DNA from: Candidatus Hadarchaeum sp.
GTDB taxonomy: Archaea > Hadarchaeota > Hadarchaeia > Hadarchaeales > Hadarchaeaceae
Assembly (NCBI RefSeq): GCF_049969415.1
Contig: NZ_JBMFOX010000034.1
Span: forward strand, 1 to 10,962
Direction: 5' to 3'
Length of the DNA stretch: 10,962 bases
The position numbers and the translations under genes were made by a program. The notes under the pieces were generated by a model. That model ran no database searches. It saw only the letters and a program-made list of their open reading frames with translations, and was not told the origin of the DNA. Of this stretch, positions 5,831 to 10,962 are shown one piece after another. Each line of letters opens with the position of its first letter. Within the stretch, counting starts at the first letter, position 1.

Positions 5831-5908
5831 ACGACTTTATCTAAAGGCGTCTCCGACAATCGGTCACCCATTTTTAATTACGGTTGTTCCAAATTTTTGG
5901 TGGGTGAA

Positions 5909-6277
5909 ATGGCCGCAGGGGTGGCAGCTTCTGATATTATAAGAGCCATGCTAAGGGCGGGTTATCCTACAAATGAAATTTATGATTTACTGGTTGAAGC
6001 CGGATTAAAAGGAGAACAGGTGCAACTGTTGATAGAACGAGTGGCGCTTGAGTTTGGTCAGGCAAATATGGAGCCAAGGCCTTCGCGCACCGTCGCTGAA
6101 CTGAGCAGGTTTTTCTTGGACCCGTTTAACAACTTTGCGCAGGAGATTCGATCTCAAGTAGAGCTGTTTTCATTAAAGCAAGAAATGATGGGAAAAGAGA
6201 TTGAAAATTTAAAACAACTTCTGGTTGTTTTGCTGCGAAGATTCGAGGCTAAGAAGTCAGAGAAAAAAGAATTTTGA
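5909..6277 (+). CDS. Hypothetical protein, small helical N-terminal domain plus a likely C-terminal coiled coil
   Basis: The ORF fills the intergenic gap. ATG 5909 follows GGTGGGTGA, with a TTTTTAAT box at 5871-5878. Heptad-like C-terminus (LKQEMMGKEIENLKQLL). Confidence 0.7.
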   Translation: MAAGVAASDIIRAMLRAGYPTNEIYDLLVEAGLKGEQVQLLIERVALEFGQANMEPRPSRTVAELSRFFLDPFNNFAQEIRSQVELFSLKQEMMGKEIENLKQLLVVLLRRFEAKKSEKKEF

Positions 6278-6294: not shown

Positions 6295-7470
6295 CTACTG
6301 GACAAATATCATGAAAGGTCTGGGGCTGAAGATGGTGATGATTGTTTTGAATTCCTTCTCTGAAAACTTCCACCGGTAGGCGAGGGGCAGATGGGCGCAG
6401 AAGTCACCACAGGGGCGCGGGATGTTCGGGTTGTCAAAGTCGAAGATTTCCTCGACGGGGCTTTCCTCAGTTTCGATAGTTACTTCCCATTGTCCCCACC
6501 AGATAGTGGCTCCGGAGGTTCCCAATGGGATTGGTGTCGCTGTGGGCAAGCCAAGCAAGCCTGCCGGATCTTGGCGCCTGTAGTCGACGTTTTTGACCTT
6601 AAGGTCACGGTAAACCGATATTCCCGGAGTTTTTCTGAGCGGGGTGGGGGGCAGGAGCTCATAGATATTTTCTCGACATACGATTAACTTCTTGCCTGGC
6701 CCGTTTAACAAATCAATCGCGATTGTGGTGAGGTCCGCTTCGGTTTTTAAGTAGTCCGTTGAGCCGAAGATTTCAAGTTCTTTGATTGACCAAGCGGCTT
6801 CGAAAGCCAACGCAGTTCTGGAGCGGTTGAGCGTTACTTTCTCGGCTAAAATCAAATCGGTTAAAACCCTTGAGTATTCCAGAGCCGTCCAAATTCCTAT
6901 GATATCCCCTATCCCTGCCCTGAACTCTTCCATTTTCTGCGCTAAGAGAAAATATCTTGAATCCACCAGAATAGCGGTATTCTCCAGCGAAGCTGAAATC
7001 CGGGTATTGCTGTCCTGGGAGGTGATCATTACCCTCGAGCCTTCAGGGAAAGTTACATCGGCAAGCACGAAGCCACTATCGGATTCCGAAATTTTTATCA
7101 GATGATCCCTCTTGTCAGAGGGGATGACTAATTCAATTCTGGAGCCATGGCGGCTGGATTCAATTTCTGATATTGCCACATGAAAGTATTTCGTCGCCAG
7201 TACTTCAATTTCCGCTAACGCGTTTTCCGAATAATCGCTAGCTTTTTTGCAAACTTCCCACAACGCTTTGAAAACGGCTTGCTTAGCGATTAACCGGATA
7301 TTTTGATAAATCTCCGCGGCAGTCGTGAAAAGGGACGACTGTGATGAGTCGAAAATAATATTCAGCGCCCTGTGGTGCCGGTGAAACTCTGCTTGAGCCA
7401 GCATGGCGATGATGACCAAAACCACGATTGCTCCCGCAGCACTGAAGGGAATAAAACCTCGTTCTTTCAT
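6295..7470 (-). CDS. Large prepilin-like (class III signal peptide) protein, possible minor pilin or adhesin
   Basis: MKERG|FIPFSAAGAIVVLVIIAMLA: basic residue, Gly, then a hydrophobic helix. ATGA overlap with the upstream gene. Confidence 0.75.
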   Translation of the reverse strand: MKERGFIPFSAAGAIVVLVIIAMLAQAEFHRHHRALNIIFDSSQSSLFTTAAEIYQNIRLIAKQAVFKALWEVCKKASDYSENALAEIEVLATKYFHVAISEIESSRHGSRIELVIPSDKRDHLIKISESDSGFVLADVTFPEGSRVMITSQDSNTRISASLENTAILVDSRYFLLAQKMEEFRAGIGDIIGIWTALEYSRVLTDLILAEKVTLNRSRTALAFEAAWSIKELEIFGSTDYLKTEADLTTIAIDLLNGPGKKLIVCRENIYELLPPTPLRKTPGISVYRDLKVKNVDYRRQDPAGLLGLPTATPIPLGTSGATIWWGQWEVTIETEESPVEEIFDFDNPNIPRPCGDFCAHLPLAYRWKFSEKEFKTIITIFSPRPFMIFVQ

Positions 7471-8141
7471 CGGGACCAGAGCTCCAAACCAATTTCAATA
7501 ACAGGATTAGTTTCCAGATGCTGAGGTAAGGAAAAGCCAAGCCTGTTCTCAGCGAGGCTAATCAGCTCCTCGTTTGAGATGGGAAGCGAGAGCAGCGATG
7601 TTTCGCGGCACAACTTGGTCCCAGAAGGTGAAAGGTTCTCGATGAGGAGGTTAAAATCGAAGCTGACAATATTGTTTTTTACCGGCGTTGCCTTCACTAC
7701 GAATCTATATCCAAATTTCCTGCCAGCGAGGTTATCAAGTATCGACTTTAGAAGAAAACTTAACTTGTTGTTCATGTCCTCGTTGGACCAAATTGTGGCG
7801 ACAGTTCTGCTCCCGATTTTTAGTTGCAGGTTCAAGAGAACATCTTCTGCCAGCAGCTCTCCCATGGTCTTGTGTCCTAAATTTCTCAAAGCTAGGTAAA
7901 GTGGTGTTTGGCCGCTAATTTCTGGAACTTGAAAACCAGCTTGGTAACTAAATCCTCCGAATTGGTCTGTGGTGCTGTTCAACAGAGCGAGCAGAGCATT
8001 TCTGGTGAAGCTCATGGCATAGATTTTCGTGCTGATTTCGGCGTTGGGCTGAGAAAATGTGAATAAAACGGTAAACGAGAGCGAGACCAAGAGGGCAAAT
8101 ATTAGCAAGTCAATGGTATAGCCAATTCCATGTTTATTCAA
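7467..8141 (-). CDS. Prepilin-like (class III signal peptide) protein
   Basis: A TTG start at 8141 after GGAGGGAG gives MNKHG|IGYTIDLLIFALLVSLSFTVLF, 1 nt after the upstream stop. The track's 8237 start overlaps the previous gene. Confidence 0.75.
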   Translation of the reverse strand: MNKHGIGYTIDLLIFALLVSLSFTVLFTFSQPNAEISTKIYAMSFTRNALLALLNSTTDQFGGFSYQAGFQVPEISGQTPLYLALRNLGHKTMGELLAEDVLLNLQLKIGSRTVATIWSNEDMNNKLSFLLKSILDNLAGRKFGYRFVVKATPVKNNIVSFDFNLLIENLSPSGTKLCRETSLLSLPISNEELISLAENRLGFSLPQHLETNPVIEIGLELWSR

Positions 8142-8142
8142 T

Positions 8143-8580
8143 TTACTCCCTCCAGAGTTGGACTTTGAGTTCGCAGAGGAGCACCGATTCGCTATCGCAG
8201 GCAAGGGCGATTGGAAGGCTAACGCTCGATTCGGCAAAATAATTTCCCGTCTGAGGTTCAGAGAAATTTTCCAGCTTATAAATCAGTTTTCCGGTAAGGG
8301 ACCGTATTTCAACTTGCATGTTCACTCCGCGTAAAAACAAAATTTTTGAAAGGTTTTCCAAGCGTCCCGGCAAAATCTCGATTGTTTCAATTCTCCTGGA
8401 TTCGTCCATAGCGCCATAAATGATGGCTTCCGCGGTGTCCAGCGTTGATCTGAGATCATCCATTTCTTGCATTTCTCGAGAAGTGTTTTGATACCAGTTA
8501 ATCGCCGCAGCCGCCAGCATCAGTAGCAGCACTGTGGCGACGAGGATGGAGAGTAAGTCCTCACCCCCGTTAACGGTCAT
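8143..8580 (-). CDS. Pilin-like protein with a degenerate class III signal peptide
   Basis: ATG 8580 (ATGA overlap) gives MTVNGGEDLLSILVATVLLLMLAAAAI: a single N-terminal hydrophobic helix, then an amphipathic helix and beta strands. Confidence 0.68.
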   Translation of the reverse strand: MTVNGGEDLLSILVATVLLLMLAAAAINWYQNTSREMQEMDDLRSTLDTAEAIIYGAMDESRRIETIEILPGRLENLSKILFLRGVNMQVEIRSLTGKLIYKLENFSEPQTGNYFAESSVSLPIALACDSESVLLCELKVQLWRE

Positions 8581-9002
8581 CCAATCAACTCTAAGTCTAT
8601 CACACCTGTTTGTCGGATGATAATTCCGCGCGGGTTTTGCTTCGAAATGAGGAACCAACCACCGTTGACGACCGAACTTATGATCAGCGAGCGCTCGAGT
8701 TCAATCTTAGATGAGACCCGCACGGATATCAGTTGAAAGCCGTTAATCAGCTCTCCGGCCAGCGAAACCTCAAATGCTCTTGATATTGGGGCAAAATCCT
8801 TGAGGTACTCGATTTCTCCGGGGAGCCCATCTATCCTTTCCAATGACTCGATTATGTTTCTCGCAATCAATTCTAGTTCTTCCTTTTCAGAGGTTCTGTC
8901 GACAAACGAGTTCAGCGAGAGGGCAAGGCCGATGAAGGCGATGGCGGCGAAGGCCACTCCCAGTTTGCTCAGCAGAAAACCAGCAGAGCCATTGTTCTCC
9001 AT
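8577..9002 (-). CDS. Pilin-like protein with a degenerate class III signal peptide
   Basis: MENNG|SAGFLLSKLGVAFAAIAFIGLALSL followed by a long helix. It starts 1 nt after the upstream stop, with a GAGGGT RBS. Confidence 0.68.
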   Translation of the reverse strand: MENNGSAGFLLSKLGVAFAAIAFIGLALSLNSFVDRTSEKEELELIARNIIESLERIDGLPGEIEYLKDFAPISRAFEVSLAGELINGFQLISVRVSSKIELERSLIISSVVNGGWFLISKQNPRGIIIRQTGVIDLELIG

Positions 9003-9003
9003 T

Positions 9004-9408
9004 TCAGATACCCTCGATCTTTATAAAGAAACGGCCATCAACCCCTTGGCAAATCATCAGGAGATAAAAGCCGCTCCTGAGCTCATTTTCGTCAGCTGAT
9101 ATTGGCAGTGGTAGAAGCTCGGTTCTAATGCTATCTCCGCTCAGAAGCTGAACTAAATTTCCCTTAAGGATAATTATACCGTCTCCCAGCTGAAGCTCAA
9201 CTATTTTTGAATTTCCCACCCCGCCAGCGCAGAGGATTTGGGATTGTTCGACGAGTAAATTGAAACTGTTGATTGCCCGCTGGCGGTCGATCATTCTTTG
9301 GGTTCGGTTTATGACATCGATTCCGATAGAAACGGAGCTGACGGCCAGCATGGCCCCAATCATGATAATTACTGGCAGCGATTCTATACCTCGAGTATCC
9401 TTTATCAT
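9004..9408 (-). CDS. Prepilin-like (class III signal peptide) protein
   Basis: MIKDTRG|IESLPVIIMIGAMLAVSSVSIGI, then a long helix and a GGVGNSKIVEL turn and strand. Confidence 0.78.
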   Translation of the reverse strand: MIKDTRGIESLPVIIMIGAMLAVSSVSIGIDVINRTQRMIDRQRAINSFNLLVEQSQILCAGGVGNSKIVELQLGDGIIILKGNLVQLLSGDSIRTELLPLPISADENELRSGFYLLMICQGVDGRFFIKIEGI

Positions 9409-9414
9409 CGGAGT

Positions 9415-9792
9415 TTACCTCACAGCTACTTGCCCCTGCCAGGGGATGTAGCCGTTCCTGGTGACTTGGACCGTGACGAGGACGACTTTGGCACCGTTCA
9501 TTGGTATGGTGAAGGTGTATTGGTTGGTCTCCTTCCCCAGCGTGCGGGCGTCGGTGCCGCCGGGATATTTCAGCACAATCGTCGCACCGCCCAAGGCGCC
9601 ACCGCTGGCGGCATCGTAGACTTTGACCGTGAGCTTCTTTCCCGAGATAGAGAACTGGACGTCCATGTCCTTGAGCACGTTGCGTTCGGCCGTGCCCACA
9701 AATTGCATCATGATGCCCATGGTCATCGCGCCGATCACGAGCGCCATGATCAGCTTGATCGGCACGCCCATCAACTGTCCTTTTTCTTCCAT
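9415..9792 (-). CDS. Prepilin-like protein with a carboxypeptidase-regulatory/transthyretin-like beta-sandwich domain; candidate major pilin
   Basis: MEEKG|QLMGVPIKLIMALVIGAMTMGIMMQFV. The C-terminal domain reads LTVKVYDAASGGALGGATIVL...YTFT...VTRNGY. First gene of the operon. Confidence 0.8.
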   Translation of the reverse strand: MEEKGQLMGVPIKLIMALVIGAMTMGIMMQFVGTAERNVLKDMDVQFSISGKKLTVKVYDAASGGALGGATIVLKYPGGTDARTLGKETNQYTFTIPMNGAKVVLVTVQVTRNGYIPWQGQVAVR

Positions 9793-9824
9793 TTCTTACC
9801 CGCCGATTTCTTGCGGGCAGCTTC

Positions 9825-9834
9825 TTTATATAAA
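9825..9834. promoter_or_regulatory. Palindromic TATA box TTTATATAAA, possibly bidirectional
   Basis: It lies between the divergent starts at 9792 (-) and 9854/9863 (+), at promoter-like spacing from both. Confidence 0.6.
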
Positions 9835-9850
9835 ACAAAATTTTGTTTTA
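9831..9850. repeat. Perfect 20-bp palindrome TAAAACAAAATTTTGTTTTA, candidate operator
   Basis: Read directly: TAAAACAAAA is followed by its exact reverse complement. Confidence 0.8.
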
Positions 9851-9862
9851 GAAATGAGCGCC

Positions 9863-10126
9863 ATGGCAAAAACTTACTATGTCTACATCCTGCGGAGCTT
9901 GAAGGACGACAACTTTTACACGGGACACACGGCCGACCTCAGGAAGCGGTTGGCCCAGCACAACCGGGGCGATGTTCGTTCGACTAAAGCGAGAAGGCCG
10001 CTGGTCCTGATTTACTGGGAGCCGTTCAAAACCCGTGGAGAGGCGATGCGGCGGGAGCGAAAGATAAAGTCGATGTGTCACGAGGCCAAGTTGAAGTTAA
10101 TTGAGGAATTCAGACAACCGGGATAG
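9863..10126 (+). CDS. GIY-YIG nuclease family protein (UPF0213/YhbQ-like)
   Basis: YYVYILRS...FYTGHT.DL.KRL.QHN.G...STK.RRP..L.Y.E...EAMRRERKIK. The start is 9863 or 9854. The track's 9623 start overlaps the pilin gene. Confidence 0.92.
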   Translation: MAKTYYVYILRSLKDDNFYTGHTADLRKRLAQHNRGDVRSTKARRPLVLIYWEPFKTRGEAMRRERKIKSMCHEAKLKLIEEFRQPG

Positions 10127-10163: not shown

Positions 10164-10661
10164 ATGCGAGATGGGGCCCTGAAGTGGGCGCTGCGGCTGC
10201 TGGGAATAGCTTTGGTGGTAGTCCCCATAATCTTGGCCTTTTCTGCCAACGGCTGGGATTTGAAGAAGGCGTTGCTGCCCAGCGAGCAGGAGCTGAGCCA
10301 AGTTTCGGAGGGGGTCGGTGACATCTTCGGCGGTGGTTTCTCCGAGGAGACAATGTCCATGGGCCAACCCGTAATCAGCGGCAGCAGCGTCAGGGTCCCA
10401 GTGACGTTCAAATCCCCTTTTAAAGTTCCGATCAAGCTCAAGGAGGTGAACCTGACCGTTTCAGGTCAGGGGATGCCACCCATCCAGCTTCAGATGGAGG
10501 AGGAAGAATTGGAAATTCCGGCGAACGGTTCCGTAAACTTCACGCTAGTTGGGACCATCCCCGGTTCACCTCCGAGCAATCCCCAAATAACCGCCGTTAA
10601 CGTTACCTTTGAGATCTATGGAGTGACCATTCAATTTAGCCCGAAAATATCAGGTGGTTAG
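10164..10661 (+). CDS. Membrane-anchored hypothetical protein with a beta-rich (LEA_2/WHy-like) extracytoplasmic domain
   Basis: N-terminal TM segment (LRLLGIALVVVPIILAF). VPVTFKSPFKVPIKLKEVNLTV and EIPANGSVNFTL resemble the LEA_2 strand pattern. Several NxT sequons. Confidence 0.65.
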   Translation: MRDGALKWALRLLGIALVVVPIILAFSANGWDLKKALLPSEQELSQVSEGVGDIFGGGFSEETMSMGQPVISGSSVRVPVTFKSPFKVPIKLKEVNLTVSGQGMPPIQLQMEEEELEIPANGSVNFTLVGTIPGSPPSNPQITAVNVTFEIYGVTIQFSPKISGG

Positions 10662-10663
10662 TT

Positions 10664-10962
10664 ATGACGTCCTGTAGTTCAACAAACAAACACTCCATGA
10701 ACTTCCTTGGCATCGCTGCCGGGGCCCTGATGGTGATCCTACCATTTCTCGGGCCTTGGTGGGTGGCCAGCGTGGGCACCGGGGCTATGGAGATAGCCCT
10801 CTCCCCATTTGACCTGTTGATCTCGGTGTTCGGACAGCCCATTCACTCGCAACTGGTTGACCTCTTTCTGCTGGCGGGGAAGATAACCATGATTCTCGGC
10901 GGTGTCTTCCTAATCTTGGGGTCGCTGTCGGTAACCAGCTGGTGGTCCGCTCGTTTGGTCAG
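10664..10962 (+). CDS. Multi-pass membrane hypothetical protein, runs off the window
   Basis: Not in the ORF track. ATG 10664 after AGGTGGT is open to the window end: MTSCSSTNKHSMNFLGIAAGALMVILPFLGPWWVASVGTGAMEIALSPF...ITMILGGVFLILGSLSVTSWWSARLV. Confidence 0.8.
   Translation, partial: MTSCSSTNKHSMNFLGIAAGALMVILPFLGPWWVASVGTGAMEIALSPFDLLISVFGQPIHSQLVDLFLLAGKITMILGGVFLILGSLSVTSWWSARLV

Follow-up and report, generated by a model that had tools for sequence, protein, structure and literature searches.

The analyzed window is an entire contig (C34, 10,962 bases) of the hot-spring archaeon Candidatus Hadarchaeum sp., which belongs to an assembly of 1.47 Mb in 138 contigs that is 95% complete. On its minus strand, reading from 9792 down to 6295, six open reading frames, here called g1 to g6, follow each other head to tail with spacings of 6, 1, -4, 1 and -4 nucleotides (nt), exactly as the original prediction had placed them, and each of the six proteins has a leader of 4-6 residues, a Gly and a single hydrophobic helix. 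The observations described below make it probable that these genes are expressed as one translationally coupled operon and encode an archaeal type IV pilin-like set, processed and assembled in trans. The features of the locus are as follows (aa, amino acids; the intergenic region has no strand).

9415-9792, minus strand: g1, 125 aa, open reading frame with its start; leader MEEKG; candidate major subunit
9004-9408, minus strand: g2, 134 aa; leader MIKDTRG, followed by IESLPV and the helix; pilin-like
8577-9002, minus strand: g3, 141 aa; leader MENNG, followed by the helix; pilin-like
8143-8580, minus strand: g4, 145 aa, ATG at 8580; leader MTVNGG, followed by EDLL and the helix; pilin-like, DUF7285-like
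7467-8141, minus strand: g5, 224 aa, TTG at 8141 behind a GGAGGGAG motif; leader NKHG, followed by IGYTIDLL and the helix; putative divergent, short DUF7284 protein
6295-7470, minus strand: g6, 391 aa, the largest of the six; leader MKERG; candidate adhesin or tip-complex partner of g5
9793-9868: divergent intergenic region of 76 nt, read from the sequence; putative promoter
9869-10126, plus strand: small GIY-YIG nuclease gene, 85 aa, PF01541, E 1.2e-17; divergent, starting 76 nt upstream of g1
5897-6277, plus strand: g7, 126 aa, soluble, with no membrane helix; convergent to g6

The bounds of the set are also those given before, a divergent promoter on one side and a convergent gene on the other. 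A TATA-like box, TTTTATATAAAG, is seen at approximately 9823-9834 (minus-strand reading), about 30 nt upstream of the g1 start, and the region shared with the GIY-YIG gene would thus contain the promoter of the operon. At the other end, the stop codons of g6 and g7 are 17 nt apart. Contig C34 carries no assembly-machinery gene, and in ten of ten longer loci of relatives BLAST finds neither an ATPase nor a TadC gene within approximately 9 kb.

The Gly at the junction of the leader and the helix is kept in all six families, as seen in orthologue alignments built from 25-30 Hadarchaeota loci. The N-terminus of g1 is nearly invariant, with the consensus M-x-E-K-G|QLMGVPIKL (here and below, the bar marks the putative cleavage site); in substrates of EppA, the peptidase of the Methanococcus maripaludis Epd system, Gln directly follows Gly, and g1 has Gln there. 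The motifs of g2 and g6 orthologues are [KR]G|VESLPV and MKERG|FMPFSAAG, respectively, and the one of g5 is M-x-E-x-G|IGYIADML, with G5 and D11 present in all 23 sequences. In g3, with the motif NERG|LLADFL, Gly is present in every complete orthologue among 28 rows, and the leader of three divergent rows does not align residue by residue. The g4 motif is LSVG|EDLF, with Asp, Ala, Ser or Pro at the Gly position in a few rows. As the window copy of g4 has two glycines, of which the second is the conserved one, its likely cleavage site is NGG|E, not NG|G; the leader-Gly-helix starts proposed originally stand for all six proteins, with the g4 site probably moved one residue downstream. A loose filter of our own design (short polar leader, Gly or Ala, hydrophobic 18-mer) served as an estimate of chance. 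It matches 206 of the 4061 open reading frames of at least 80 aa in the genome (approximately 5%), and at such a rate six matches in a row are far beyond chance. Archaellins, from which the N-termini had been set apart already, were considered and dropped, as the N-termini indeed differ and no archaellin-family match was obtained in Pfam or NCBIfam.

The g6 family is present in 54 of 66 Hadarchaeota genomes. Around g6 matches 30 loci were fetched, several of them cut by contig ends, and the hidden Markov models (HMMs) of the families g1 to g6 match in 25, 28, 28, 25, 30 and 30 of these loci, respectively, with the order preserved and the misses falling mostly at contig ends. The set and its gene order are conserved across Hadarchaeota. 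The most conserved gene is g1, with 94% identity in a congener and 68% across the family, while the identities of the other five genes are 31-64%. A word-seeded search, which favors close relatives, yields 130 clusters of g1 homologues at E<=0.001, with identities of 57-94% among the 120 matches listed. The named homologues among these matches carry Hadarchaeota labels (a few are labeled Methanobacteriota or 'Hodarchaeaceae') and are called 'hypothetical', in line with the earlier expectation that such proteins would be annotated only in this way; one of the matches carries PF13620.

Most g6 orthologues are 660-750 aa long, vs 391 aa in the window copy. The insert of approximately 280 aa seen in the long orthologues (L028, L033 and others) falls where the window g6 has a linker, residues 246-263 (window 6682-6735), and the short form found in the genus of the window points to a whole domain lost or gained. 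A profile search with the g6 alignment among proteins of 1298-3705 aa gave no match. No RNA data set matching the operon was found, and one DNA data set, a hot springs metagenome, contains 0.20 of the operon's words.

A second set of this type resides in the same genome. On contig C2, genes for an ATPase (742 aa) and TadC (660 aa) are directly followed by five small genes, p1-p5, with the same type of N-terminus. In BLAST, the six proteins have no significant match to the C2 set or in the genome as a whole. Comparison of orthologue alignments by hhalign pairs g4 with p3 (97.8%, E 1.1e-12, 121 columns), g2 with p2 (97.1%, E 7.8e-11, 108 columns) and residues 1-143 of g6 with residues 1-136 of p5 (94.7%, E 5.9e-8), all remaining pairs being below 60% and g3 having no counterpart in the five-gene set. 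Judging by these profile matches, the window set is a colinear paralogue of the C2 pilin-like genes; since the matches are colinear, the operon is a diverged duplicate of a C2-type cassette standing behind a type IV ATPase and TadC, with g3 as an extra gene.

A Pfam scan that covered 116 of the 142 orthologues of the six families gives no match for g2 or g3 (27 orthologues each). For the other part of the operon, three families are relevant, DUF7284 (PF23955), DUF7285 (PF23956) and DUF7286 (PF23957), each with the gathering cut-off of 27 bits; all three models match in the control genomes of Haloferax volcanii and Methanosarcina acetivorans. DUF7284 matches four of the 22 g5 orthologues, two of them over the cut-off (29.0 and 32.0 bits), and does not match the window g5 itself. 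A search with the g5 profile (23 sequences) against 1.84 billion representatives yields 128 proteins; 36 of the 40 longer ones (mostly 320-440 aa) match DUF7284, 30 of them over the cut-off, and hhalign of g5 with one such DUF7284-type protein gives 98.2%. On the strength of these matches, the assignment of the g5 family to DUF7284 is firm at the family level, with the window copy being short, divergent and sub-threshold.

The matches of g4 and g6 stay under the cut-off. DUF7285 is matched by one of the 18 g4 orthologues (22.1 bits) and one of the ten p3 orthologues (20.5 bits), and a six-frame search in the 66 genomes shows seven sub-threshold matches, with no fewer than four at the g4 position, the sub-threshold scores overall being 17-22 bits. 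DUF7286 matches none of the 22 g6 orthologues, and the six-frame search in the same genomes finds only two matches, which score 15.5 and 15.2 bits over positions 3-65 of the profile and fall on the N-termini of g6 orthologues. The nearest ESM Atlas cluster of g6 that carries a Pfam family is a DUF7286 one (score 0.87), which is a lead only; otherwise, only hypothetical archaeal clusters were obtained. By sequence similarity, the order g4-g5-g6 may thus correspond to DUF7285-like, DUF7284 and DUF7286-like, only the g5 link being firm. Given these links, and the pilin sets encoded in trans that appear in the available text of Makarova et al. (2016, PMC4858521), the original prediction overstated the case when it described the set as uncharacterised. 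A literature search returned no paper naming DUF7284 to DUF7289.

Genes resembling g3, g4 and g5 are seen together in a Methanosarcinaceae metagenome-assembled genome, where a four-gene cluster (L084, 8391-11176) lies between the genes for histidyl-tRNA synthetase and ribosomal protein S15. It encodes three small anchored proteins and then a DUF7284 protein of 391 aa, with no ATPase within 10 kb. According to hhalign, the second small reading frame resembles g3, weakly (72.6%, E 3e-5, 56 columns), another small one resembles g4 (83%), the first one reaches only 1.7% with g2, and none of the four proteins matches the g1 or g6 profiles. A search for related loci with protein P0225 gives three Methanosarcinales loci; protein P0265 gives none, and tblastn of P0265 against plasmids produced no match.

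The pilin-like N-terminal helix expected by the original prediction is seen in the structure models of g1 and g6, with a beta-rich part after it. The AF2 model of g1 (pLDDT 82.8) consists of a helix at 12-37 and strands at 43-124 that form a seven-strand beta-sandwich, a generic Ig/FN3/MG (macroglobulin) fold (Z 10.4, root-mean-square deviation 2.4, 75 aligned residues). Foldseek of g1 against PDB gives no row at E<=0.001; the weak full-length rows, with E 3-6e-3, include archaeal pili (8fk7 and 8fj5) as well as the archaellin 9eq7. The model of g6 (pLDDT 83.2, pTM 0.76) starts with a 67-residue N-terminal helix (9-75), after which there are a beta-sheet (112-169), helices, a disordered linker (the above-mentioned 246-263) and a C-terminal beta domain.

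No match to Pilin_N (PF07790), the family of PilA-type pilins, was found in the genome, and therefore g1 is left as the candidate major subunit. An unlikely alternative role for the whole operon is that all six proteins are low-copy minor pilins which prime or decorate a filament, g1 not being repeated, and that the major subunit is encoded elsewhere, e.g. by p1 or by an unrecognised stand-alone pilin gene. Such an arrangement would agree with the frequently stand-alone genes of major pilins in related euryarchaeal systems, as presented in the available part of PMC4858521, with the composition of the Methanosarcinaceae cluster, where g3-, g4- and g5-like genes occur with no g1 or g6 match and no nearby ATPase, and with the 6-nt gap after g1, which has no space for a terminator that would raise g1 over the other five genes. 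It is at odds, however, with the genome having no Pilin_N gene, and with g1 itself, which has the size and architecture of an archaeal major pilin, is far better conserved than the other five and is the first gene behind the promoter.

The two largest proteins are predicted to interact. The complex model of g5 and g6 has a score of 0.79, the best of three controls being 0.00; 116 of 157 solved complexes and 2 of 215 mismatched pairs attain this mark, counts that apply only roughly here since the model was built with our own alignments. The runs share at least 47% of contacts, the partner pLDDT is at least 70, and the interface lies outside the membrane helices, residues 42-107 and 348-360 of g6 facing residues 40-120 and 182-213 of g5. 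No similar complex has been solved, and thus the result is unlikely to come from the memory of the model, which supports a predicted binding of g5 to g6. Of the division into one major pilin, four minor pilins and a tip protein proposed originally, this contact is the only part backed by a model.

One small protein, several different pilin-like ones and one large one resemble GspG-H-I-J-K of the type II secretion system (T2SS), and GspK is among the weak structural rows of g6 (Z 5.1, root-mean-square deviation 3.2, 91 aligned). That the operon encodes a short pseudopilus serving secretion or uptake of DNA or another substrate, like T2SS pseudopilins, Com pili or the Sulfolobus bindosome, and not a long adhesive pilus, is nevertheless very improbable, as these Z values are at the noise level and no genes for secretion substrates, or for binding proteins that have pilin-like leaders, were noticed next to the set.

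The ATPase and TadC that the original prediction required elsewhere in the genome are found on contigs C2 and C54. T2SSE matches over the cut-off are located on C54, C2 and C23, and T2SSF scores 28.9 bits on C54, exceeding its cut-off, and 21 bits on C2, short of it. Three types of ATPase, A, B and C, occur in Hadarchaeota and are represented in this genome as follows.

Type A ATPase/TadC: contig C2; own pilin genes p1-p5
Type B ATPase/TadC: contig C54; no own pilin genes found
Type C ATPase, approximately 565 aa: absent from the assembled contigs; own five pilin-like genes at C19:2437-6166

The ATPase N-termini have an extra Cys-rich domain, visible in the sequences. The type B ATPase is approximately 27% identical to type A, and its module comprises TadC and a small upstream coiled-coil gene; in nine of nine type B loci, neither matches to the HMMs of the g and p families nor a series of pilin-like genes lie within approximately 5-8 kb. 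The genes upstream of type B are conserved (L061, L088-L095) and encode a coiled-coil protein of approximately 90 aa, with a sub-threshold match to DUF7310 (E 6.5e-5, 23.8 bits), and a protein of approximately 200 aa. Contig C54 is 4.3 kb long, has GC content of 0.59 vs the genome mean of 0.53, and contains a run of N.

The type B module on C54 is favored as the motor by elimination, being the simplest partner, since it has no adjoining pilin genes, whereas the other two modules have sets of their own. In the 66 genomes, g6 and type B occur together in 49, g6 only in five, type B only in two and neither in ten; for g6 and type A the respective numbers are 48, six, four and eight. In two further loci of one Hadarchaeota family an ATPase/TadC pair is close to the set, at 2.5 kb and divergent in L057 (G059:C26), and at 4.6 kb on the same strand in L058 (G058:C2); both contigs end right after TadC. 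It is rather unlikely that the orphan g1-g6 cassette and the orphan type B ATPase/TadC, tens to hundreds of kb apart, make up a phylum-wide split machine that builds a new kind of filament; such a filament, if real, could serve cell-cell contact or syntrophy in uncultured archaea of the subsurface and hot springs.

The peptidase, also expected to be encoded elsewhere, is represented by the tail of its gene, its catalytic domain not being seen in the assembly. An Arc_PepC_II C-terminal fragment is seen at C19:2-118 (27.3 bits, cut-off 29.9), and C19:2-154 encodes the C-terminal 51 residues of a peptidase; these have 86% identity to the enzyme of a congener, which is 253 aa long, and the flanks are syntenic. 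In the congener, the type C ATPase (562 aa) adjoins the prepilin peptidase, and the flanks of this region map to C19 and C4. As C19 starts inside the peptidase gene and the flanks are on C19 and C4, the N-terminal part of the peptidase and the type C ATPase likely fall into an assembly gap; PF01478 was found in all five relatives checked. Beside the cut peptidase gene there is a third cluster, the five pilin-like genes at C19:2437-6166 (minus strand), with motifs such as AG|QSSMEFLIL, and the weak matches of the genome to PF04021 (Class_IIIsignal) are confined to this cluster.

Several observations weigh against a processed and assembled pilin set. At E<=1, none of the six window proteins matches Pilin_N, Class_IIIsignal or the NCBIfam models of archaeal pilin N-termini, and none reaches a Pfam or NCBIfam threshold, the models of DUF7284, DUF7285 and DUF7286 included. 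The residue preceding Gly departs from the usual Lys or Arg in three of the six proteins, being Asn in g3, Asn or Gly in g4 and His in g5. Three g2 orthologues of one family (f5: L031, L036, L055) read M-E-S-F-P, with Met replacing Gly, and by their sequences may be made directly in the mature form, without a leader to cleave. PF01478 has no match in this genome. The sandwich of g1 is closer to generic Ig/FN3 folds than to solved archaeal pilins, none of which is among the 50 best rows by Z, and g6 has no solved fold match (Foldseek; VIA-wide best Z 5.7), its weak rows, GspK and PilX (Z 4.6), being noise. As for the motor, co-occurrence does not single out A or B, the genomes being related and many of them incomplete, and the module neighboring the set in L057 and L058 is type A, not type B. 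Type A may also be the motor, because its p1-p5 set is paralogous, it is found near the set in these two genomes, and co-occurrence does not separate the types.

The first three of these observations, together with the ten of ten loci with no ATPase near the set, would also suit uncleaved, signal-anchored surface proteins that form a cell-envelope complex and are never assembled by a type IV machine. We consider this decidedly unlikely, since it would be hard to explain why six unrelated families keep Gly precisely where the leader meets the helix, and since the paralogous set stands directly behind an ATPase and TadC, g5 falls into DUF7284, and the DUF7285 and DUF7286 matches of the phylum occupy the g4 and g6 positions. 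Moreover, g6 is missing from most genomes that are without both long ATPases (among the 12 genomes without g6, eight are without type A and ten without type B).

For the type IV pilin-like set, we infer the following course of cleavage and filament formation and the following roles of the six proteins. Each precursor would be inserted in the membrane via its single N-terminal helix, and the prepilin peptidase (its gene is truncated at the contig end of C19) would remove the leader of 4-6 residues after the conserved Gly. An ATPase/TadC motor encoded elsewhere would then raise the subunits from the membrane into a surface filament. The likeliest repeating subunit would be g1, small, very conserved and composed of a helix and an Ig-like domain, with g2-g6 possibly acting as low-copy accessory pilins; among these, a complex of g5 and g6, formed via their extracellular parts, could initiate the filament or form its cap and confer adhesion.

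Among the neighboring genes, g7 is the convergent neighbor of g6 in ten of ten loci, and in 25 of 30 loci according to the HMM. It has no Pfam family, and ESM Atlas yields only hypothetical archaeal clusters for it; g7 could be a regulator or a partner of the set, or be merely syntenic. On the other side, the GIY-YIG gene is followed by genes of two membrane proteins, of 165 and 99 aa, that belong to no known family (10164-10960).

Features of the operon have parallels in known systems. As for likeness to the sets of DUF7285, DUF7284 and DUF7286, its g4, g5 and g6 may stand in the order DUF7285-like, DUF7284 and DUF7286-like, and each of them has a short leader and a helix. Unlike them, it has a g5 of 224 aa vs 320-440 aa and a g6 of 391 aa vs the DUF7286 model of 1000 positions, it also contains g1, g2 and g3, none of them with a Pfam family, and its own copies are below every threshold. 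According to the available text of Makarova et al. (2016, PMC4858521), archaeal pilin sets are encoded apart from ATPase/TadC modules and duplicate and move separately, and there are ATPases that have a Cys-rich N-domain and a partner protein with a coiled coil. In particular, the subclade 4F, or Clade 2, 'grand plan' type IV pili (PMC4858521; the haloarchaeal pilB2/pilC2 regulon in the accessible part of PMC9856176) share with the Hadarchaeum genome the Cys-rich N-domain of the ATPase, the coiled-coil protein before the type B ATPase, several different pilins per system, and sets and motors that are often apart or duplicated separately. This likeness is one of gene features; the coiled-coil partner there is arCOG07564 (PMC4858521), while here it is a sub-threshold DUF7310 match. 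The roles of pilB2/pilC2-type systems are described as undefined even in haloarchaea in the accessible part of PMC9856176, and Hadarchaeota are not in the 2016 census as given in the available text of PMC4858521.

In the Epd pili of Methanococcus maripaludis, the major pilin EpdE is encoded away from the main locus and several minor pilins are essential (PMC4858521, same text). No sequence relation of Epd pili to the window set was found; the C19 cluster beside the peptidase, with its weak Class_IIIsignal matches, looks more Epd-like than the window set does. Bacterial tip complexes (GspI-J-K of T2SS; PilV-W-X-FimU with PilY1) could be similar in the way of working, with low-copy pilins, one large member and, in the present case, a predicted contact between the two largest proteins; they differ in that there is no homology, the GspK and PilX rows being noise, as stated above. 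Alkane-degrading Hadarchaeota are described as having no PilA-type pilin in the available part of PMC11297162.

On the whole, the set is a phylum-wide, modest variant of already catalogued archaeal type IV pilus gene sets, and the overall view of Makarova et al. (2016), as far as the available text of PMC4858521 presents it, is unchanged. Within this view the operon provides a clear natural example of the separate evolution and duplication of pilin cassettes and ATPase/TadC modules, and it adds short, divergent, in part putative members to the uncharacterised families DUF7284, DUF7285 and DUF7286. Hadarchaeota are uncultured, and almost nothing was found in the literature on their surface. To this phylum the operon offers a concrete candidate filament, with the conserved g1, the predicted g5-g6 complex and a shortlist of motors and a peptidase.

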